From Candidatus Poribacteria bacterium (GTDB lineage: Bacteria > Poribacteria > WGA-4E > PCPOR2b), in assembly GCA_965207975.1 (NCBI GenBank), contig OZ242315.1, positions 5,975,197 to 6,039,196 on the forward strand: a DNA stretch of 64,000 nt. The letters are read 5' to 3'. Below are positions 17,862 through 32,786 of this stretch, piece by piece. The translations under genes were made by a program, and so were the position numbers. Every line of letters begins with the position of its first letter. Within the stretch, counting starts at the first letter, position 1. The notes beneath the pieces were generated by a model, which was given only the letters and a program-made list of their open reading frames with translations, was not told where the DNA came from and made no database searches.

Positions 17862-18506
17862 ATGTTCACAGGAATTGTTGCGGAGTTGGGAAACGTGAGG
17901 GCCGTTCAGCGCGGTTCACAAGCGGGAGTGCTGACTATTGCAGCCGCAGAGGTGTTATCGGATGGGGTTGTCGGGGATAGCATTGCGATAGATGGGGTCT
18001 GTCTGACAATCACCAATCTGGGGCACGACAGTTTCACAGCAGATGTTTCTGCCGAGACGTTGCGGCGCACAACTTTAGGCTACCTCAAACCGGGCGATCC
18101 GGTCAATCTTGAGAACCCATTGCGCTTGGTAGATCGGTTGGGCGGGCATCTCGTTTTAGGGCATGTTGACGAGGTGGGGACCATCAGCGGTTGGCAGGAT
18201 GAAGGTACATCATCTTTAATGCGCGTCTCGATTTCTGAGGAGACAATGCGGTATGTGGTGTATAAGGGATCGATCTGTGTTGACGGTGTCAGTCTGACAA
18301 TCTCAAACCTGTTTGACGACGGTTTTGAGGTCGCACTTATTCCCCACACCAAAGAGGTCACGACGTTAGGGCATAAACGGGTCGGCGCGCATGTGAATAT
18401 TGAGGTGGATATATTAGGGCGTTATATTGAACGGTTGTTGACCTATCCGTCTAGCGAAGGATCATCAATTGATATGGACTTCTTAGCAAAGCACGGATAT
18501 ATTTGA
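17862..18506 (+). CDS. ribE: Riboflavin synthase alpha subunit
   Basis: MFTGIV... start; two lumazine-binding repeats (DSIAIDGVCLTI / GSICVDGVSLTI). The ORF-track start at 17832 is an upstream extension. Confidence 0.9.
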   Translation: MFTGIVAELGNVRAVQRGSQAGVLTIAAAEVLSDGVVGDSIAIDGVCLTITNLGHDSFTADVSAETLRRTTLGYLKPGDPVNLENPLRLVDRLGGHLVLGHVDEVGTISGWQDEGTSSLMRVSISEETMRYVVYKGSICVDGVSLTISNLFDDGFEVALIPHTKEVTTLGHKRVGAHVNIEVDILGRYIERLLTYPSSEGSSIDMDFLAKHGYI

Positions 18507-18981: not shown

Positions 18982-21177
18982 CTACTTGAGAATCGTCATC
19001 TTCCGTGTGGCAGAATAATCGCCCGCTGTAAGGGTGTAAAAGTAAGTGCCACTTGCCACAGGTTCGCCGAATTCATTTTTGCCATCCCAATAGGCGGCAC
19101 GGCTACGGGTCTGATATATACCTGCGGGCTGATGTCCGAAGGCTAACTGCCGAACTGCTTGTCCGCTTGTGTCGTAAATAGTCAAGGTGACATCTGCATC
19201 CTTTGCGAGATTATACGGTATCCACGTCTCTGGATTGAACGGATTCGGATAGTTGAGCAACAAAACAGTTTCTTTCGGTATCAGTGTTGCAAGAAGTTGC
19301 TCTAGAAACAAAATGCCTCTTAGAGACGTTGCATCTGTGAGGTCTAGTTGTTGTGCTTGGAAAAGCCACCACTTTACATCTGCTGCGATCAACATTTCAA
19401 GTGCTTGTGCCGACGGTGCGGCCTCCGCAGCTCCAAACGCATCCGCAACCCATACCAAATCCGAAATATTAACTACCCCATCTCCATTAACATCCGTTGC
19501 TATATCCGGGACCTTGCTCCCGAATGTGGACGCAACCAAAACCAAATCTAGAAGATTCACGACACCGTCGTCGTTGACATCCGTTGCAATCGGTGGTGGT
19601 TCTGTATCGGAGATAACGTTAAAGATTACTGGATCATCTATAACCCATCCCGCAGCGGTTGCAGAAACGGTGTGTATTCCCAAATTCTCTCCTAGTGTGA
19701 GCGTGCTCTGCGCCCTGCCGTTTTCGTCAGTAGTTGTGTGTGTGGCACTGAGTCTGCCGTCACCGGCAGTCACGGCAAACGTGACCGGAACCCCCCCAAA
19801 CGCAGAACCGTACTCATCTCGCACTTCAACGACAAATGGTTTCAGCGTTACAGAGGGGGAGCCGCGCTGGTAGCCTGAGATTTTCAAGATTGCCGAAGGG
19901 GTACGGTGGCGAAAAATTACCTTAACTCGTCTTTCTTTTAAAATTGGGATGTGTGTGTTAATCGATGGGTAGCTCAAGGGATTGCCTCGCAGCTCAACTT
20001 CATCTGCATACCCCAACCCTGTATTTGCTACCAACGCTGAGACATCCAATATAGAGTTATTCGCAAGGTATAACCATGTCAGATGAGTCAATCCTGTCAC
20101 AGCCGAAATATCAGATATGGAGTTATTCGCAAGGTATAACCATGTCAGATGAGTCAATCCCGCCACTGGTGAAATATCGGATATAGAGTTGCCTTCAAGA
20201 TCGAGATCTGTCAGATGAATCAATCCCACCACAGGCGAAATATCAGATATAGAATTGCCTCCCAGATATAGCAATGTCAGCTTGGTTAATCCGGCTGTCG
20301 CCGATATATCGGATACCGAGTTCTCCCCAAGATCTAGCTCTTTGAGGTCGGCTAATCCCATCACTGCTGATATATCCAACACTGCGTTGTCCCGAAGAGA
20401 CAACATGGTCAGGTTAGTCAATCCTGCTAGGGGCGAAATATCGGATATAGAGTTACCATCCAAATACAGCTGTGTCAAGCTGGTTAACTCTGCCGCAGCC
20501 GAAATATCTGCTATCAAGTTACTCCCCAAAAACAGCGATGTCAGATTAGTTAATCCCGCTAGGGGCGAAATATCGGATACCGAGTTCTTTGAAAGACGTA
20601 GTGCTATCAGGTTAGTCAACCCTGCTATGGGTAAAATATCGGGTATAGAGTTGTATCTTAAATCCAACTCTATCAGTTTGGTTAATCCCGCCACGGGCGA
20701 AATATCAGATATAGAGTTGCCTCCGAAGAATAACTTAGTCAGATTAGTTAATCCCACCACGGGCGAAATATCGGATATAGAGTTATCCCAAAGGTCTAGC
20801 CGTGTTAGATTAATCAACCCTGCTACAGGCGAAATATCGGATATAGCATTGCGTCCAAGAGATAGCTTTGTCAGGTTAGTTAATCCCGCCACGGGCGAAA
20901 TATCGGATATAGAGTTATCCCAAAGATACAGTCGTGTCAAATTAGTCGCGAACTCGAGTCCGGTCAAATCGCTTATGCTAGCGTCCTGTCCTTCAAGGCG
21001 GGTCAAAGTCCCCATCTCTGCTACAGTGATTGGGTCCCCCGATGCTTTACGGAGAGCGGATTCGATAACAGCGCGGAGGTTCGGGTCGGGAAGGTTTACC
21101 GTTTGCGCCCTTGTCGGCAACGGAATCGAGACGCAAATTAGCAGGAAAAAAGTGAGACGAAAAAATTGTGTTTTCAT
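18982..21177 (-). CDS. Secreted internalin-like LRR protein with dockerin-type repeats and a T9SS-type C-terminal sorting domain (Por_Secre_tail)
   Basis: Signal peptide MKTQFFRLTFFLLICVSIPLPTRAQ; about 17 LRR units; VNDDGVVNLLDLVLVASTFG...DVNGDGVVNISDLVWVADAFG; C-terminal LLLNYPNPFNPETWIPYNL...GTYFYTLTAGDYSATRKMTILK. Confidence 0.8.
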   Translation of the reverse strand: MKTQFFRLTFFLLICVSIPLPTRAQTVNLPDPNLRAVIESALRKASGDPITVAEMGTLTRLEGQDASISDLTGLEFATNLTRLYLWDNSISDISPVAGLTNLTKLSLGRNAISDISPVAGLINLTRLDLWDNSISDISPVVGLTNLTKLFFGGNSISDISPVAGLTKLIELDLRYNSIPDILPIAGLTNLIALRLSKNSVSDISPLAGLTNLTSLFLGSNLIADISAAAELTSLTQLYLDGNSISDISPLAGLTNLTMLSLRDNAVLDISAVMGLADLKELDLGENSVSDISATAGLTKLTLLYLGGNSISDISPVVGLIHLTDLDLEGNSISDISPVAGLTHLTWLYLANNSISDISAVTGLTHLTWLYLANNSILDVSALVANTGLGYADEVELRGNPLSYPSINTHIPILKERRVKVIFRHRTPSAILKISGYQRGSPSVTLKPFVVEVRDEYGSAFGGVPVTFAVTAGDGRLSATHTTTDENGRAQSTLTLGENLGIHTVSATAAGWVIDDPVIFNVISDTEPPPIATDVNDDGVVNLLDLVLVASTFGSKVPDIATDVNGDGVVNISDLVWVADAFGAAEAAPSAQALEMLIAADVKWWLFQAQQLDLTDATSLRGILFLEQLLATLIPKETVLLLNYPNPFNPETWIPYNLAKDADVTLTIYDTSGQAVRQLAFGHQPAGIYQTRSRAAYWDGKNEFGEPVASGTYFYTLTAGDYSATRKMTILK

Positions 21178-21257: not shown

Positions 21258-22167
21258 TATAGTAGACGCAAGAAATAACGGGACAATAGTTTAGAAGTAT
21301 GTTATCCTGTTTGCATTATGGCACATTCATCAGATTTACGCACACGCGTCCTTCAATTCATAGAAAATGGTGGCAGTAAAACAGAAGCGGCAAAACGGTT
21401 CAAAGTCGGTCGAACTGCGATTTACCGATGGCTCAATGACCCAGACCCACTCACACCGGGCAAACCGGGTCCCCGAAAACCGAGACTACTTGACCCAACG
21501 GCACTGGCTGAACATGTCAAGGCACACCCTGACCAAACCCTTAAAGAACGCGCCACACACTTTGGGGTTTCACCCGCCTGTGTCGGCTATGGACTCAAAA
21601 GACTCGGCTACACGCGTAAAAAAAAACGGTTGGATATAAGGAGCAATGTCCAGAAAAACGACAAGCCTATCAGGAGCAACTCGCAACGGCGAAAGCATCA
21701 GGCAAAACGCTGATTTACCTCGACGAGACCGGTTTTACAGATGAAACGTTTAGAAGTCATGGCTATGCCCCCCGGGGACAATGTGTCCAGGGGTTGATAC
21801 CCAGCCAAAAGACCCGCACCACCACTTTGATAGTGGCACAACTGAATAATAAGTTGATTGCCCCAAAGTTAATATCGGGCAGTTGTAATGCACAACGGTT
21901 TAATACATGGCTTGATGAAGCGTTATCGCCACATTTAGATGCCAACAGTCTCGTGATAATGGATAATGCACGCATTCACAAGACCACCGAGACCCAAGCA
22001 TTGATACAAGCCTGTGGTGCTAAGGTGTTATACTTGCCCCCGTATTCGCCGGATTATAATCCCGTTGAACAAAAGTTTGCCAATATAAAGAGAGTCCGGT
22101 CATACAATGCGGATAAGCCCATTGAGGAGATTATCAATATGTATCGTTAATTGTTAAATCTACTATA
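21258..22167 (+). mobile_element. IS630-family insertion sequence (about 910 bp) with imperfect terminal inverted repeats tatagtaga... / ...tctactata and flanking TA
   Basis: Left end ctaTAGTAGACGCAAGAAATAACG (21257-21280) against the reverse complement of the right end (22153-22177), about 18/25 matches; it interrupts the otherwise duplicated LRR upstream region. Confidence 0.55.
21318..22150 (+). CDS. IS630/Tc1-mariner-family DDE transposase, two frames joined by a -1 shift within the A9 run at 21618-21626 (programmed frameshift or pseudogene)
   Basis: N-terminal HTH part (frame 0, to 21713) plus C-terminal catalytic part in the -1 frame (open from 21620): YLDETGF ... IMDNARIHK ... LPPYSPDYNPVEQ (DDE triad context). 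Confidence 0.75.
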
Positions 22168-24410: not shown

Positions 24411-24881
24411 ATGCCAAATATCTACGAAGGCAATCTTATCGGTACTGACCTGAAAATTGGAATCGTGGTCAGTCGGTTTAATAGCTTTATCACCACCAAA
24501 TTGTTGGACGGGGCAATTGACGCGCTGAAACGTCACGGCGTGGACGAGGATGATGTGGACATCTGCTGGACGCCCGGTTCGTTTGAAATCCCCACTACGG
24601 CAAAACGGCTTGCTGAAAAGGAACGATATGATGCGGTCATCTGTATCGGTGCGGTCATTCGTGGTGCAACCCCCCACTTCGACTTTGTTGCCAACGAAAG
24701 CGCGAAAGGGATCGCACAGGTTTCTCTCAATACCGGGATCCCGGTGATTTATGGTGTTATCACGACCGATACGATTGAGCAGGCGATTGAACGTGCTGGC
24801 ACGAAGGCGGGGAATAAAGGGGCAGAGGCGGCGGTCACGGCGATTGAGATGGCGAACCTGTATCGGCAAATTGATGGATAG
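24411..24881 (+). CDS. ribH: 6,7-dimethyl-8-ribityllumazine synthase
   Basis: [44 protein letters not shown]..., canonical RibH. Confidence 0.9.
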
Positions 24882-24902: not shown

Positions 24903-25760
24903 ATGGCAGCCTTAGAAGAAATCAAAATTGGTAATGGGCGGATTATCAAAGGGGACTGTCTCTCAGTTATGGATAATTTTCCCGACAACCATTTTATGCT
25001 TGGGTTCACCTCGCCTCCCTACCTGAACGCGATCAATTACGAGGAGCATATTGAAAAACTGCACGGGGCCAAAGCACGATGGGAGCGGGAAGATATATCC
25101 TACGAGGAATATCGGCGTTTTCTGGAGAATCGGTTCAAGGCGTTGCTGCGAATTACAAAGCCGGGGGGACATAATGTCGTAAATATTGCACCGGTCCTAT
25201 GGAACGGTACGCGCACTGCCCTCCCTTTTCATTTTGTCAGCTGGCTTGAACAAATTGGGTGGCAATTCAAGGAGGATATTATCTGGGAAAAGCCGGTTGC
25301 GAGGGATAGGCGATCAGGGGTTTTGTTACAGCATCCCTATCCCGGATATTACTACCCTAGCTTGGTTGCCGAATATATTTTTGTCTTTCAGAAACCTGCC
25401 GATAAGAAAAGTCAGAACAACATTTACTGGAATAGAAGTGAGGAAGAGAAAACAAGGAATGCAATTGACCTCAAGGACTATCAAGGCGAGAAGAGCAAAA
25501 ACGTTTGGAAAATCCGTCCATTAGCCCCCCAAGAAAATTTGCATCCCTGTCCATTTCCGTTGGAACTCGCGGAACGGGTCGTCCAGTTTTACTCTTATAA
25601 GGGAGATTCGGTGATTGACATCTTTGCCGGAAGTGGACAGACAAATTGTGCCGCGGAGAAACTAGGTAGAGCGCATGTCGGCATTGAAACGCAACAGAAA
25701 TACATAGATTATGCGGTTGAACAGCTTCGTCCAATTGTTGATCAAGGACAGTTGTTTTAA
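24903..25760 (+). CDS. Beta-class DNA amino-methyltransferase (N6-adenine or N4-cytosine; N6_N4_Mtase fold), M1 of an M-R-M triplet
   Basis: Motif IV SPPY (FTSPPYLNAINYE) precedes motif I FxGxG (IDIFAGSGQT), the beta-class order; 22 bp after ribH. Confidence 0.85.
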   Translation: MAALEEIKIGNGRIIKGDCLSVMDNFPDNHFMLGFTSPPYLNAINYEEHIEKLHGAKARWEREDISYEEYRRFLENRFKALLRITKPGGHNVVNIAPVLWNGTRTALPFHFVSWLEQIGWQFKEDIIWEKPVARDRRSGVLLQHPYPGYYYPSLVAEYIFVFQKPADKKSQNNIYWNRSEEEKTRNAIDLKDYQGEKSKNVWKIRPLAPQENLHPCPFPLELAERVVQFYSYKGDSVIDIFAGSGQTNCAAEKLGRAHVGIETQQKYIDYAVEQLRPIVDQGQLF

Positions 25761-25787
25761 CCTTATTAGAGGTGTAACGAGAACCTG

Positions 25788-26849
25788 ATGGATATTTTCG
25801 CTAGGATCACTGGAGTAAAATATACCCCACTTCTGTGCAGCAAACTTAAATCTTTCAGCTATAAGGATTTTGACGCAACACTTTCAGACAAAGCAACTTT
25901 CATTCTACAGATTGATCCAACCAAGCAGATTGCTTTAAGCTGCTGGGTTTCACCAAAAAGGACACGGTCTTACCCGTATTCAAGGGTCTATGATACATTG
26001 GGCTTTTCTGGCAAGAAAGCAACAATAATTCCAATTTTGAAGGATGAGGGTAAACAGGGCGATCGAGACTTTCTCCAATGGGATACAATCTCTTTAATGA
26101 GTTTGTTGGGCGTTTACGTGATAATTGGCTACTATGCTGATGCTTCAAAAAGCACAAGATACACGCATAAAATCACGGGACAAAAGTTTAATTCAGAGCA
26201 CATCATGAGCGAAATTGATCGGTTGATGTCTTATCAATCCGATGCTCTGCATTGGAACATAACGCAAGTCGAAGGTATCGGCGAAATTGGTTCGCAAGCG
26301 TTGAACGCCTATTCGGTTATCTCTGAAAAACTAGACGTGGAAATGCACTCTTGGGAGTCTGCGGAACGTCGAATCAATATACTTCGTGAAGGTCAGGCAG
26401 AGTTTAAAACACTATCAAGGAACTTGGCAAGGCAGGCACAGGCAAGAGAGAGTATCACGACACAGCCCAAAGAGCACATAGAGGGAATCAAAGGGAAGCT
26501 AACCATCAAAAATTATCTTGGTGGCAATTATTATTTGACCTGTGATGAGGTTGAAATCCATGGGGAGGAAATCTATCTCGTTGAAGCGAAGCATACGAAC
26601 AAAGATGAGCTGCCTTCCCTCGGTGATATAAAAGATGGTTTGGTGAAAATGATACTATTTACAAACTTGGAAAACCTAAAAGTTGATGAGAGAGATTACA
26701 ATCCTGTGCCAGTTTTGAAGTTGACGACGGGTGAGGGATTCAGTCTTAACTCGCTTAACCGCCCGCAGCAAAACCGTCTTACGAATCTAAAGCAGGAAGC
26801 CGAAACCAATGGATTTCGGATTATGATCAATGATGGATTTTTCACGTAA
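25788..26849 (+). CDS. Candidate restriction endonuclease (putative PD-(D/E)xK) sandwiched between the two methyltransferases
   Basis: Position between M1 and M2 with 28-bp and 12-bp gaps; a possible D...ExK in ...TCDEVEIHGEEIYLVEAKH...; no family was recognised. Confidence 0.4.
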   Translation: MDIFARITGVKYTPLLCSKLKSFSYKDFDATLSDKATFILQIDPTKQIALSCWVSPKRTRSYPYSRVYDTLGFSGKKATIIPILKDEGKQGDRDFLQWDTISLMSLLGVYVIIGYYADASKSTRYTHKITGQKFNSEHIMSEIDRLMSYQSDALHWNITQVEGIGEIGSQALNAYSVISEKLDVEMHSWESAERRINILREGQAEFKTLSRNLARQAQARESITTQPKEHIEGIKGKLTIKNYLGGNYYLTCDEVEIHGEEIYLVEAKHTNKDELPSLGDIKDGLVKMILFTNLENLKVDERDYNPVPVLKLTTGEGFSLNSLNRPQQNRLTNLKQEAETNGFRIMINDGFFT

Positions 26850-26860
26850 TGGGATAGAGT

Positions 26861-27754
26861 ATGAAAGCAACTGTGCTGCGTGGAGATTGTGCGTCGCTAT
26901 TAGACCGACAGAACGCCACTTTTGAAGATGTTGATCTCACCTTTCTCGATCCGCCTTTTAATCAAGATAAAGGCTACAACGAGTGGGATGATAACTTGCC
27001 TGAAGCACAGTATTGGAAGTGGATGGACGACGTGTGCACAAAGATTTACGACCGAACTGCTTCGGGTGGTGCAATCTATTTCATGCAGCGCGAGAAGAAA
27101 ACCGAGGCTGTGCTACGGTGTTTACGCGAGTCTGGATGGACGTTTCAAAACCTGATTATTTGGAAAAAGAAAACGTCCGCTGTCCCCGGGATGAATCGTT
27201 TTGGCAAACATTACCAGATCATTGCGTTTGCAACGAAAGGGGAGCGTCCACGGATATTTCATCGCTTGCGGATCAATCCACCACTCCCTGCGGGCTACAA
27301 ATATGAACGGGAAAATGGCATGTTTGTCACCGACGTGTGGGACGACATTCGTGAGTTGACATCGGGCTATTTTGCTGGAGATGAGGCACTGCGGGATGCA
27401 GAGGGAAATCGCTTGCACAAGCAACAGGCACCGATTCAACTTCTCCTTCGGATAATCCTCTCTTCGACAAATCCCGGCGATGTTGTATTAGATCCATTTG
27501 CGGGATCGGGGACAACGTTGGTCGTTGCAGAACAGTTAAGGCGAAAATCAATTGGTATTGAACTCGATAAGGTCAACATCGAAATTATTCGGAAAAGACT
27601 TGCTGAAAAAAGAGAAGCCGATGATATTTCAGGTTCATTCAACGATTATGAATGCACACCGGACTTAGAAGCCATTTGGGGCCGGGCTAAATCGAGAGCC
27701 GCGGCGACTCTCAAACAGGGAAAACTTTTTGAGTCAAATCAAAATCGTGTTTGA
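26861..27754 (+). CDS. Beta-class DNA amino-methyltransferase, M2
   Basis: Motif IV DPPF (LTFLDPPFNQD) then motif I (VLDPFAGSGTTLVVAEQL). Confidence 0.85.
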   Translation: MKATVLRGDCASLLDRQNATFEDVDLTFLDPPFNQDKGYNEWDDNLPEAQYWKWMDDVCTKIYDRTASGGAIYFMQREKKTEAVLRCLRESGWTFQNLIIWKKKTSAVPGMNRFGKHYQIIAFATKGERPRIFHRLRINPPLPAGYKYERENGMFVTDVWDDIRELTSGYFAGDEALRDAEGNRLHKQQAPIQLLLRIILSSTNPGDVVLDPFAGSGTTLVVAEQLRRKSIGIELDKVNIEIIRKRLAEKREADDISGSFNDYECTPDLEAIWGRAKSRAAATLKQGKLFESNQNRV

Positions 27755-28299
27755 GTAGATGAACATCTCGAATCTATTTCCACAAATTAAAACTTTCACC
27801 CTACAACATCATTTCAACGGTCCCTTTTTAATTTTTCAAACAAATCTTTTGTAGAACTTACGCACATGGTCAGAAAATAGGGTATAATAGGGACGATGAA
27901 CCCACTCCAATGCGCCAAACATGACTATCAAGACTTACGCATTTCAAAGTTTTGACCTGTCAGGGACCTGCCAAATCCCTGACATTTGGCGGGGTTATGG
28001 TGTCATTTCAGTGAAGAACGGTTCATAAACAGTGCGTATTTGGCAGGTCAAAAAGCCGTTTACACGCCCCTTCTCTTACGTGGTAAAAATCTACAAACGC
28101 TCTGAAGCTAGGCCCCATCGGGGTTCAGAGGAGCATCCACCAATGATGAACCCCCGATGCTTGGTTGAAATTTTTTTTGGACCTGCCAGGGCCCTGCCAA
28201 ATTGCCGAATCGTGTCGGTGGGGCATTGAAGCGGAGGTGTAGGTTCCGCGTAGCGGAAGGGGTTGGATTTTACCGTTCAACTGCGTAAATCCTACTTTT

Positions 28300-29705
28300 A
28301 TCAAAAATTCCTTTAGGGGTAAAACCCAAAGGTTTACCTTTGGGATACCCCCCTGCTTTAGCATTTTTTAATTTTGCAGTTAAAATATGATATGTTTGTC
28401 TTGGGTCTGGTGGGAGCGTTTGCCCCCTATCGCCCGATAGGATCTCTCGCGTGCTTGTGAAACAGGATATAAAGGACAAAGCCGACTCCGATGAAAACCT
28501 ACAAGTTCAAGATGTATAGCAATCACGGGAATCGTGAGTTGCACAGGACGATAGAGGGTCATGCTGATGTGTGGAATCACTGTGTCGCGCTTCAGCGTCG
28601 GTACTATTGCCTCTATGGCAAGTATATCAGCAAGTTTCGTTTGATAAATCATATATCGAAGCTGAAACGACTTGCTAAGTTTGCTCATTGGAATCAGCTA
28701 CCCAGCCAATCCATTCAAGACGTGGCAGCACGGATTGACAAAGGGTATAAGGCGATGTTTGAAGCGCGTGCGAAAGGCAAGGCGTGGGGGAGCCCTCGTT
28801 TTAAGCCACGCGGCAAATACAAGTCATTCACGCTGCTTCAAGCGGGTTGGCAATTGCTTACCAGTAACAAGATTCGTATTGGCAAGAGTGTCTACCAATA
28901 CTTTAAGTCTCGTGATATTCGTGGCACTCCGAAACGTTGCACAATCAAACGGGACGCTATCGGCGATGTCTATATCTGCATTCTCACCGACTATGTAGAA
29001 CCTGACCTGAATCGAGTCATGACGGGTAAAATCGCGGGGTTTGATTTCGGTCTGAAAAGGTATCTCACGGGTCACAATGGACACGACATAGAATCACCTC
29101 AGTTTTTCAAACGCAGCCTCAACGCTATCAAACGTGCAAACCGCGCGCATTCACGAACCAAGAAAAAGTCAAATAATCGGGAAAGAACAAGGCTCGATTT
29201 AGCACGGAAGCACCGTAAGATTGAACGACAACGAGAGGACTTCCACTGGAAGTTGGCACACCAACTGACCGATGAATACGACGAGATACGGCTCGAAGAT
29301 TTGAACCTGCAAGGTATGAAGTCGCTATGGGGACGCAAAGTCAGTGACTTAGGGTTTGCCGATTTTGTCAAAAAGTTGGTGTATATCGCTAAGAAAAAAG
29401 GTGTCAAACTCACCTTCATTGATAAGTGGCATCCAACGAGTAAAACTTGTTCGGTCTGCGGTGTGGTCAATGAAGCGTTGAATCTGCGTGATAGAACTTG
29501 GCAGTGTAACGATTGTGGCACGGTGCATGACCGGGACCGCAACGCTGCGATTAACATTTTTCGGGTTGGGGCGTCAACCCATGAAGGAGAGGACGTAAGT
29601 CCCGATTCGTCGGGCAATCCTTGTTGATAGCACAATTCGACTCCTATTAGCAACGGAATCGTAAGAATCCCAAGCCTTTAGGTTTGGGAGTACGTCAATA
29701 ACGTG
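28300..29705 (+). mobile_element. IS200/IS605-family element carrying only tnpB (IS1341-like), with subterminal LE/RE-like hairpins; the boundaries are approximate
   Basis: Hairpin cccaaaggtttacctttggg (28325-28344) upstream and the similar cccaagcctttaggtttggg (29669-29688) downstream of tnpB; no tnpA was found. Confidence 0.5.
28491..29627 (+). CDS. tnpB: TnpB (OrfB_IS605) RuvC-like RNA-guided endonuclease family protein
   Basis: RuvC-I IAGFDFGLK, RuvC-II region ...EIRLEDLNLQGMK, zinc finger CSVCG...CNDCG, RuvC-III HDRDRNAAINI. Confidence 0.85.
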   Translation: MKTYKFKMYSNHGNRELHRTIEGHADVWNHCVALQRRYYCLYGKYISKFRLINHISKLKRLAKFAHWNQLPSQSIQDVAARIDKGYKAMFEARAKGKAWGSPRFKPRGKYKSFTLLQAGWQLLTSNKIRIGKSVYQYFKSRDIRGTPKRCTIKRDAIGDVYICILTDYVEPDLNRVMTGKIAGFDFGLKRYLTGHNGHDIESPQFFKRSLNAIKRANRAHSRTKKKSNNRERTRLDLARKHRKIERQREDFHWKLAHQLTDEYDEIRLEDLNLQGMKSLWGRKVSDLGFADFVKKLVYIAKKKGVKLTFIDKWHPTSKTCSVCGVVNEALNLRDRTWQCNDCGTVHDRDRNAAINIFRVGASTHEGEDVSPDSSGNPC

Positions 29706-29713
29706 AGTTTTCA

Positions 29714-30322
29714 ATGATTGCAATTATCGACTACGGTGCGGGCAACCTGACGAGCGTTGAACGCGCTGTCAAATATTTAGGCTACGACGGAAGAATCACC
29801 GCCGACCCCCAGATCATTTTAGGTGCGGAGAAAGTTATCTTTCCCGGCGTGGGTGCGGCGCGGGCAACGATGGATAACCTCAACACGGCTGGGCTTGCGG
29901 CGGTTTTATGGGAGGTCTACAAATCGGGTAAGCCGATGTTGGGAATCTGTATCGGTATACAGATCCTGTTTGAGCATAGCGAGGAGGAGGATACTAACTG
30001 TCTCGGCATCCTGCCCGGGATTGTCAAAAAGTATGACGCCTCTCCGATCCAAAAAGTGCCGCAGATCGGTTGGAATGAGGTGTATCAGACGCAGGTGCAC
30101 CCAATTTTTCAAGATGTTCCGAATCCCGCTCATTTCTATTTTGTGAACTCGTACTACCCAATCCCGCAAGACGATTCATACATCGTCGGCAAGACCACTT
30201 ATGGCGTTGAATTTTCGAGTGTCGTCGCCCATCAGAACCTGATTGCGACGCAGTTCCATCTGGAGAAGAGTGGTCGGATCGGACTGAAGATGCTTGATAA
30301 TTTCTTGCGGAATGGACAGTAA
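29714..30322 (+). CDS. hisH: Imidazole glycerol phosphate synthase glutamine amidotransferase subunit
   Basis: MIAIIDYGAGNLTSVERAV..., catalytic GICIGIQIL and QFHLEKSG; there is no adjacent hisF or hisA. Confidence 0.85.
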   Translation: MIAIIDYGAGNLTSVERAVKYLGYDGRITADPQIILGAEKVIFPGVGAARATMDNLNTAGLAAVLWEVYKSGKPMLGICIGIQILFEHSEEEDTNCLGILPGIVKKYDASPIQKVPQIGWNEVYQTQVHPIFQDVPNPAHFYFVNSYYPIPQDDSYIVGKTTYGVEFSSVVAHQNLIATQFHLEKSGRIGLKMLDNFLRNGQ

Positions 30323-31896: not shown

Positions 31897-32786
31897 GTGA
31901 ATACAGATATGGCGAATGAAAGAAACCTCTCATTAACTGAAGAAGAAATTCGCGAGTTAATCGCTAATGAATTTCCGCGCCTAATAACCCAAAATCCCGA
32001 GATTCGTTATGAGCTGATCGGTGTTATGTCGGAGACTTTTGCCAAAAAAGAGGATATAACAGCGATTTTGAACGAGCTCAGGCAGATGCGTGAGGAATCT
32101 GAACGCCAGCGGGTTGAATTCCGGCAGGAGATGCAAGTTCTACGCGAGGAGTCCGAGCAGCGATGGGCTGAATTCCGGCAGGAGATGGAATCCCTACGTG
32201 CAGAATCCAATCGGTTGCGCGAGGAGTCCGAGCAGCGATGGGTTGAATTCCGGGAACAGATGGAAGCCTTACGCGAGGAGTCTAATCGGTTGCGTGAGGA
32301 GTCCGAGCAGCGTTCCGGCAGGAGATAAAGGACCTACGCGAAGAGTCCAGCGCGTCACGTGCATATCTAGATGATGAATTAAGGCGATTTCACCATACCG
32401 TTCAAGGCTTGGGCGCACGATGGGGATTGCAGTCTGAAGAAGCATTCCGCAGTGGGCTCGCTGCAATTTTGACGGATGAACTCGGTTTCCAGGTGGAACG
32501 GTACGAAGGTTATGACGATTCTGGATCGGTTTTCGGACAGCCGGAACAGGTGGAGATGGATGTAATCATCCGGAACAGTTTAGTTATTGCAATTGAAATT
32601 AAATCATCGGTCAGCCGCAGTGACCTTGCCCTTTTTCAAAGGAAAGTGGCATTCTTTGAGCAGACGGAAAGTGTAACGGTAAATCGAAAATTCTTCATAT
32701 CTCCATTTGTTGATCCCAACGCTGTTGGATTGGCGGCACGGATGGGTATCGAACTCTACACCCACAGCTTAGATATTATAATTTAG
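31897..32786 (+). CDS. Coiled-coil repeat protein with a C-terminal DUF3782-like PD-(D/E)xK domain, interrupted by a frameshift (two ORFs: 31897-32328 and 32298/32409-32786)
   Basis: 75-bp (25-aa) tandem repeats LREESEQRWxEFRxQMExLRxESNR; the third copy lacks 10 nt (atgggctgaa) at 32312/32313, which shifts the frame. The downstream frame is open from 32298 and encodes ...EMDVIIRNSLVIAIEIKSS... (an E/D...ExK-like motif). Confidence 0.5.
32146..32324 (+). repeat. 75-bp tandem repeat x2.4 inside the coiled-coil gene; the third unit carries a 10-nt deletion
   Basis: 32146-32220 and 32221-32295 are about 90% identical; 32296-32324 is a truncated third copy. Confidence 0.8.

Follow-up and report, generated by a model that had tools for sequence, protein, structure and literature searches.

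The described systems to which the genes studied here are probably closest are two restriction-modification (RM) systems, those of SuaI and CbeI, both isoschizomers of HaeIII. SuaI from Sulfolobus acidocaldarius cleaves GG^CC, and its partner M.SuaI is a beta-class GGCC methyltransferase that forms N4-methylcytosine (m4C) (PMC3425538). The M.SuaI gene lies directly upstream of suaI (PMC3425538, PMC5809426), and TSPPYYN can be read from primer E800-F, whose position is ~800 bp upstream of suaI (PMC5684531); an independent prediction assigns R.SuaI to Type IIP and to the PD-(D/E)xK fold (PMC2441816). In Caldicellulosiruptor bescii, the ~1.0-kb gene cbeI (GG^CC) is followed, after a 45-bp gap, by that of M.CbeI, a 0.837-kb open reading frame (ORF) encoding an alpha-class, GGCC-specific m4C methyltransferase with the motif DPPY (PMC3679861, PMC3425538). 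We analyzed a 64,000-nucleotide stretch of a Candidatus Poribacteria contig (OZ242315.1), referred to as the window, in which genes for a methyltransferase (M1), a candidate restriction endonuclease (R), and a second methyltransferase (M2) lie in a chromosomal slot between ribH and a hisH-like gene.

The explanation that we favor, with a probability of about 0.78, is that the ribH-hisH slot holds two independent Type II RM modules, an intact M1-R pair and a decayed pair formed by M2 and a second nuclease gene, R2, and that a TnpB-bearing insertion arrived later. The features of the slot are as follows.

24411..24881, forward strand: ribH, lumazine synthase (Pfam DMRL_synthase, E=1.1e-62), the left border of the slot
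24903..25760, forward strand: M1, beta-class amino-methyltransferase of 285 amino acids (aa) (PF01555)
25788..26849, forward strand: R, candidate Type II restriction endonuclease of 353 aa (PADLOC REase_II match)
26861..27754, forward strand: M2, orphan beta-class amino-methyltransferase of 297 aa (PF01555)
27726..27851, forward strand: R2 remnant of 42 codons, in a frame other than that of M2 (tblastn with the R2 of locus L092)
27856..29701, forward strand: TnpB-only insertion of the IS200/IS605 type, with the TnpB ORF at 28491-29627
29714..30322, forward strand: hisH-like glutamine amidotransferase (Pfam GATase, E=8.8e-15), the right border of the slot

The gene order in the window is ribBA, ribH, M1, R, M2, the TnpB gene, and hisH. 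M1, R, and M2 are co-directional, with intergenic gaps of 27 bp (M1-R) and 11 bp (R-M2). The ribH border on the left and the hisH border on the right are common to every Poribacteria sister locus compared. A scan of 22.8-30 kb for promoters and terminators gave counts at or below the shuffled expectation, with no signal above chance parting ribH, M1, R, and M2.

The evidence for a second module lies in M2 and the sequence that follows it. M2 belongs to PF01555 (N6_N4_Mtase, E=2.8e-44), and its motif IV, DPPF (aa 30-33; nucleotides (nt) 26948-26959), is of the N6-adenine type and stands ahead of motif I, FAGSG (aa 213-217; nt 27497-27511). In sister locus L092, where M2 is 88% identical, and in L093 and L094, where it is 83% identical, the slot reads ribH-M2-R2-hisH, with neither M1 nor R. 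R2 encodes 284-288 aa and begins 1-4 nt from the M2 stop codon; across genomes, its proteins share 66-75% identity and a PD...ELK motif, and searches with R2 in Pfam, PADLOC, and the PDB returned no match. The window retains a fragment of this gene, corresponding to R2 residues ~241-282 (71% identity over 42 aa; E=1.9e-14 by tblastn with the L092 protein). This remnant overlaps the 3' end of M2, the last ~5 codons of which are read from it. The same remnant and the same deletion junction were found in L004-L007, L091, and L128, that is, in all M1-bearing sister loci, and a junction common to every one of them indicates one ancestral deletion of ~720 bp covering R2 residues 1-240. Taken together, the presence of M2 with its own R2 in sister genomes and the R2 remnant in the window indicate that M2 is what remains of another RM module, independent of M1-R, to which it belonged as the methylase. 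In the proposed course of events, M2 would once have worked with its own 284-aa nuclease, the ~720-bp deletion would have taken residues 1-240 of R2 and left M2 as an orphan kept by selection, and the TnpB-only element would have inserted afterwards between the R2 remnant and hisH.

Other sister genomes hold further states of the slot. The order is ribH-M2-hisH in L127, ribH-M1-M2-hisH with R lost in L091, ribH-M1-R-M2-hisH in L006 and L007, and ribH-M1-R-MazE/PIN-M2-hisH in L004 and L128, so that M2 is the sole constant of every slot state. The slot, a small hotspot, has taken up RM modules, a MazE/PIN toxin-antitoxin pair, and an insertion sequence (IS) element, and its states show in orderly sequence, within one lineage, how RM modules are gained and decay and how an orphan methyltransferase is retained. 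A 73%-identical relative of M2 is followed by R2 in another slot (L086). In the window, M2 is intact and has no functional nuclease gene of its own beside it, only the 42-codon remnant of R2 at its 3' side, as expected of an orphan methyltransferase. Its ratio of nonsynonymous to synonymous substitution rates (dN/dS) is 0.09-0.12, after the loss of R2; the corresponding figures are 0.04-0.06 (M1), 0.10-0.19 (R), and 0.02-0.09 (ribH and hisH). M1, R, and M2 are therefore all under purifying selection. The low dN/dS of M2, together with its constancy in all slot states, makes a retained orphan function plausible.

What that function is bears on a tentative alternative, namely that M2 is a lineage-conserved orphan with a housekeeping or epigenetic role like that of CcrM in Poribacteria, while RM genes come and go. 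We regard this as possible but doubtful; it is compatible with the explanation by two modules and differs from it only on why M2 was retained. It draws on the constancy of M2, which stands alone in L127, on its dN/dS of ~0.1 after R2 was lost, and on close M2 clusters, which far outnumber R clusters on Poribacteria contigs. CcrM (6pbd) and M.MboIIA (1g60) are, moreover, the best structural relatives of M2, which aligns to both over nearly its full length (E=1.6e-20 and 7e-18, respectively, in the PDB) and, like CcrM, has the beta order of motifs (DPPF, FAGSG) and is now without a nuclease. However, the identity to both is low, the NCBIfam CcrM equivalog score is 94 bits against a cut-off of 830, and the orphan state of M2 is secondary, since the R2 remnant is still there. 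M2 is also translationally coupled to R2 in several genomes, which is a classic RM arrangement, and its 73%-identical relatives at another site are accompanied by R2 or by a 5-methylcytosine methyltransferase and a gene for a 576-aa protein, which suggests a mobile RM module rather than a core regulator.

Two further loci of metagenome-assembled genomes (MAGs) of Poribacteria involve M2. At L085:6001-9888, an M2 relative (73% identity) has behind it a C5-cytosine methyltransferase (PF00145) and then the 576-aa protein, for which neither Pfam nor PADLOC gave a match; these genes are possibly another two-methylase RM system. At L009:6074-8232, the junction between the 3' end of R (aa 306-353) and the 5' end of M2 (aa 1-100) is duplicated around an insert of ~1.7 kb, as if an insertion had duplicated a long stretch of its target.

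We examined the neighborhoods of R in the 80 best genome loci and, in a scan seeded with M1, in 32 metagenome loci, about 100 loci overall. A methyltransferase lay immediately upstream of R, often overlapping it, in 74 of the 80 genome loci, and 68 of these 74 enzymes carried SPPY; the remaining loci were at contig ends, except for L066, which has a D12 methyltransferase downstream. In about 24 of the 32 independent metagenome loci, an R-family gene came after an M1-type methyltransferase (59-82% identical). Outside Poribacteria, over 90 R loci from many phyla had the single upstream SPPY methyltransferase and no M2-type enzyme downstream; among the loci compared, a downstream M2-type enzyme is confined to Poribacteria. 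The rule for the R family is a two-gene operon in which an SPPY methyltransferase precedes R.

M1 conforms to this rule. It belongs to PF01555 (N6_N4_Mtase, E=1.4e-38) and carries motif IV, SPPY (aa 37-40; nt 25011-25022), ahead of motif I, FAGSG (aa 241-245; nt 25623-25637). The motif IV is of the N4-cytosine type, and the product of M1 would be N4-methylcytosine. Its best PADLOC model is the MTase_II model PDLC03353 (E=3.3e-53), which is also the best model for the canonical upstream partners of the R family (E=1e-76 to 4e-81). The top PDB match of M1 was 2zie, TTHA0409 (E=2.4e-24), and the best PDB relatives of M1 and M2 together are all beta-class enzymes (2zie, CcrM, M.MboIIA, M.PvuII, and M.RsrI). 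M1 and R thus present a methyltransferase with motifs I and IV, an adjacent nuclease gene, and a linkage of the two across unrelated hosts, as expected of an orthodox Type II system. From their adjacency, from the recurrent pairing of M1-type enzymes with more distant R relatives, and from the logic of host viability, we infer that M1 is the cognate methylase of R: methylation by M1 would shield the host DNA, and R would cut the unmethylated site. Because a single methyltransferase is the conserved partner of R, a symmetric site is likelier than an asymmetric or Type IIS one, and the site is most likely palindromic. M1-R is an intact, ordinary Type II pair, most likely of the IIP kind, from a widespread, poorly annotated family.

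The sequence-only reading had described the middle ORF as a restriction endonuclease candidate with a D...ExK core, possibly the founder of a new family and lacking obvious relatives. The first part of this description held. In the predicted model, R comprises an alpha/beta domain (aa 1-135), a helical linker (aa 136-223), and a PD-(D/E)xK core (aa ~230-353), which agrees with the D...(D/E)xK on adjacent beta-strands within an alpha-beta-beta-beta-alpha-beta arrangement that marks this nuclease superfamily. The N-terminal part carries the conserved motifs KRTRSYPY and KDEG..GDRDFLQWD. The candidate catalytic residues are D253 (nt 26544-26546), E266 (nt 26583-26585), and K268 (nt 26589-26591); among 27 homologs, D253 and K268 were invariant and position 266 was E or D. 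Structural matches to PD-(D/E)xK folds were found, and a Foldseek search against the PDB gave no match at E<=1e-3. The second part of the description failed on both counts. The family is very large and conserved to an unusual degree: there are 3,528 homologs of R at E<=1e-3, falling into 464 clusters at 50% identity, and relatives are present in 517 species-representative genomes from many bacterial and archaeal phyla. The REBASE-derived PADLOC REase_II model PDLC03572 matched R with E=4.6e-91 (aa 1-349 against positions 6-353 of a 371-position profile), and aa 249-314 also matched another REase_II model, so the family is already covered and is not new. The top 120 homologs, at least 60% identical to R and all annotated as "hypothetical," come from Poribacteria, Methanoperedenaceae, Thermoplasmata, Woese- and Pacearchaeota, and others, and the family as a whole is common in archaea and thermophiles. 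A tblastn search with R in plasmid and phage collections found no match. We consider R a candidate Type II restriction endonuclease with a two-domain, PD-(D/E)xK architecture.

That R is a nuclease of some other kind, either methylation-dependent and Type IV-like or repair-related, that travels with methyltransferases is very improbable. Sequence searches with R in Pfam, NCBIfam, and the PDB returned zero matches, its N-terminal domain weakly resembles ERCC1/XPF-type folds, and some homologs are fused to proteins with a von Willebrand factor A (VWA) domain, all of which would suit such a role. The near-obligate and often overlapping linkage of R to a methyltransferase, with three types of methyltransferase swapped around it, is however the signature of a methylation-sensitive restriction enzyme, and a nuclease that depends on methylation could not coexist with a neighboring methyltransferase of matching specificity. 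The strong PADLOC REase_II match of R and a layout that parallels the characterized SuaI and CbeI systems argue against it as well. The fused homologs P0151, P0152, and P0159, which lie outside the window, are ~1000 aa long and carry a full-length R-like domain at the C terminus (38-43% identity) behind an N-terminal region of ~630 aa with the VWA domain; they were considered as fusions of two methyltransferases with R and rejected as such, being VWA-domain fusions with no methyltransferase domain. The R family has neither a Pfam or NCBIfam model nor a solved structure in spite of its very large size, and genome annotation consequently calls its members "hypothetical"; with a family model and a single structure, thousands of genes could be given an annotation.

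The sequence-only reading had correctly recognized three ORFs, of which the flanking two encode beta-class amino-methyltransferases with motif IV ahead of motif I (aa 37 against 241 in M1 and aa 30 against 213 in M2), and had joined them into one M-R-M unit, typical of Type IIS or asymmetric-site systems. Such a three-gene system, in which m4C and N6-methyladenine methylases guard one strand each, would fit the adjacency, shared direction, and short gaps of the genes, the N4C-type motif of M1 and N6A-type motif of M2, the two-domain architecture of R, the M1-R-M2 order kept in six Poribacteria loci, the M2-like genes near M1-R in loci L124 and L109, and the existence of true M-R-M triplets elsewhere in the R family, albeit with an alpha D12-type enzyme as the second methyltransferase, but it is hardly tenable, since over 90 non-Poribacteria R loci lack an M2-type enzyme, the same chromosomal slot holds M2 with R2 or M2 alone, a remnant of R2 sits at the 3' end of M2, a toxin-antitoxin pair lies between R and M2 in L004 and L128, and the six loci are related by descent and count as one event. 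The inference of a Type IIS site, built on two methyltransferases shared by one nuclease, loses its basis, and co-inheritance of both with R was not found across homologous systems. A different partner for one of the methylases, which that reading had itself named as grounds for giving it up, is what R2 turned out to be.

With M1-R taken as a Type II module of its own, we compared its relatives with the SuaI and CbeI systems. The R family resembles SuaI in having a beta-class TSPPY(Y/F)N methyltransferase directly upstream of the endonuclease gene, and its hosts are strongly GGCC-depleted and commonly archaea or thermophiles. The SPPY sub-clade of M1 (FTSPPYLNAI) differs from the majority clade (VTSPPYFNAP), which most resembles the motif in the SuaI primer. 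A CbeI-like layout was found in Hydrogenobacter sp. RSW1 (L066), where the gene after R, which overlaps it, encodes an alpha-class D12 methyltransferase of 275 aa with DPPY. The N terminus of M.CbeI, as given by the cloning primer, is MLKNVLRY, and the L066 methyltransferase starts with MNIVKNVLRYPGGK. In L078, and in loci L104, L105, L107, L108, and L125 of a second clade of R relatives (clade B; the closest non-Poribacteria relatives of R form clade A), R likewise has a D12 methyltransferase immediately downstream, and these five clade-B loci keep the upstream beta-class SPPY enzyme as well. The downstream D12 enzymes are 270-285 aa long, with N termini reading KNVLRYPGGK or KSPLRYPGGK, which match the N terminus of M.CbeI. 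As in the CbeI system, then, family loci combine an R gene of ~1.0 kb with a close alpha D12 DPPY methyltransferase (~278 aa in M.CbeI); the window differs in having no D12 enzyme and a beta-class SPPY methyltransferase upstream instead. The type, position, and size of the partner methyltransferase thus agree with SuaI or CbeI across the R family, and R probably belongs with these characterized GGCC enzymes.

GGCC was the most depleted 4-mer palindrome near clade-A, clade-B, and Poribacteria loci, with observed/expected ratios (O/E) of 0.36, 0.28, and 0.25, respectively. In the whole window (1-64000), it occurs 42 times against 189 expected under a Markov model and is about five-fold under-represented. 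Judged from the types and positions of the partner methyltransferases, the gene sizes, the PD-(D/E)xK fold, and this depletion, the site of M1-R is probably GGCC, methylated to N4-methylcytosine like those of SuaI and CbeI.

The mean pairwise identities of the two proteins indicate that methylase and nuclease have different affinities. Poribacteria and clade A are 58% identical in R and 34% in the methyltransferase, Poribacteria and clade B 44% in R and 68% in the methyltransferase, and clades A and B 45% and 35%. By this comparison, the Poribacteria operon is a hybrid of a clade-A-type nuclease and a clade-B-type methylase. As the methylase must protect against the nuclease, clades A and B would share a specificity; if they differ, the Poribacteria operon would be a natural re-pairing experiment. 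Three types of methyltransferase, two beta clades and the alpha D12 type, have been swapped around a conserved R, a clear natural example of modular methyltransferase exchange around a restriction endonuclease, and the Poribacteria operon is a cross-clade hybrid. A canonical methyltransferase-R pair also occurs at L072:4165-6862 (a Bacteroidota MAG), followed directly by a gene for a 261-aa protein 30% identical to Poribacteria R2; no M2-type methyltransferase is nearby, and the island is flanked by DAHP synthase and kdsC/kpsF-like genes.

Several observations weigh against the explanation by two modules or against the functions given to them. The proposed kinship of R with SuaI (Saci_1976) and CbeI (Cbes_2438) is drawn from partner methyltransferase, gene size, and gene order; models PDLC03572 and PDLC03353 match R and M1 but name neither an enzyme nor a recognition site. 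Between M1 and the methyltransferase of the closest non-Poribacteria relatives of R, the identity is as low as ~34%. Poribacteria loci that lack M1-R are equally depleted of GGCC (O/E 0.23-0.45); depletion is a lineage-wide trait of Poribacteria and serves as no more than a lead to the site. R2 is a putative nuclease by its motif and gene context, and the enzymatic activities of M1, R, and M2, the methylated base, and the recognition site are what we infer, whereas the gene content, homologies, series of slot states, R2 remnant, and purifying selection are direct observations. Finally, on two metagenome contigs from outside Poribacteria, which represent a second lineage (L124:2306-5523 and L109:339-3238), an M1-like-R pair is preceded by an M2-like methyltransferase (63% identical), and a functional link between the modules is conceivable.

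L124 also holds a piece of R2, residues 1-55 only, directly upstream of M1-R, and this truncation is other than that in the window. The recurrence of M1-R beside an inactivated M2-R2 in two lineages might be due to chance or to competition between RM systems. In a stronger form, the different truncations of R2 would reflect competition or incompatibility in which one system displaced the nuclease of the other, R2 being an unclassified family of restriction enzymes; we think this unlikely.

The TnpB-bearing insertion belongs to neither module. Its protein matched the NCBIfam model NF040570 guided_TnpB (E=1.8e-68) and the Pfam models OrfB_IS605 and Cas12f1-like_TNB, placing it with the IS200/IS605 TnpB proteins, and the element lacks TnpA. 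The boundaries of the 1.85-kb insertion were set by alignment with L004 and L091, which do not have it; it sits between the R2 remnant and hisH and is absent from all sister loci compared. An Rfam scan around TnpB for omega-RNA or other RNA found none. The insertion is a recent, lineage-specific IS event. The position of the genes between ribH and a tnpB element, which had been taken as a classic defense-island context, was read correctly, but TnpB arrived late and does not make the locus such an island. Within the non-coding left part of the insertion, the 23-nt direct repeat GACCTG(C/T)CAGGG(C/A)CCTGCCAAAT occurs at 27954-27976 and 28180-28202, where zero copies are expected by chance.

Elsewhere in the window, ribE (17862-18503) is parted from ribBA by a split IS630-family transposase (HTH_Tnp_IS630 at 21318-21713 and DDE_3 at 21794-22150) and a gene for a leucine-rich-repeat protein on the minus strand (18982-21177); in sister genomes, unlike in the window, ribE, ribBA, and ribH are contiguous. 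On the 3' side of a histidine kinase gene, a DUF3782/PDDEXK_10 gene is represented by two ORFs (31897-32328 and 32409-32786), one for the N-terminal part, which is coiled and rich in repeats, and one for the PDDEXK_10 part. In sister genomes, DUF3782/PDDEXK_10 genes are single and encode 144-327 aa, indicating that either the repeat length is variable or the gene in the window has been split.

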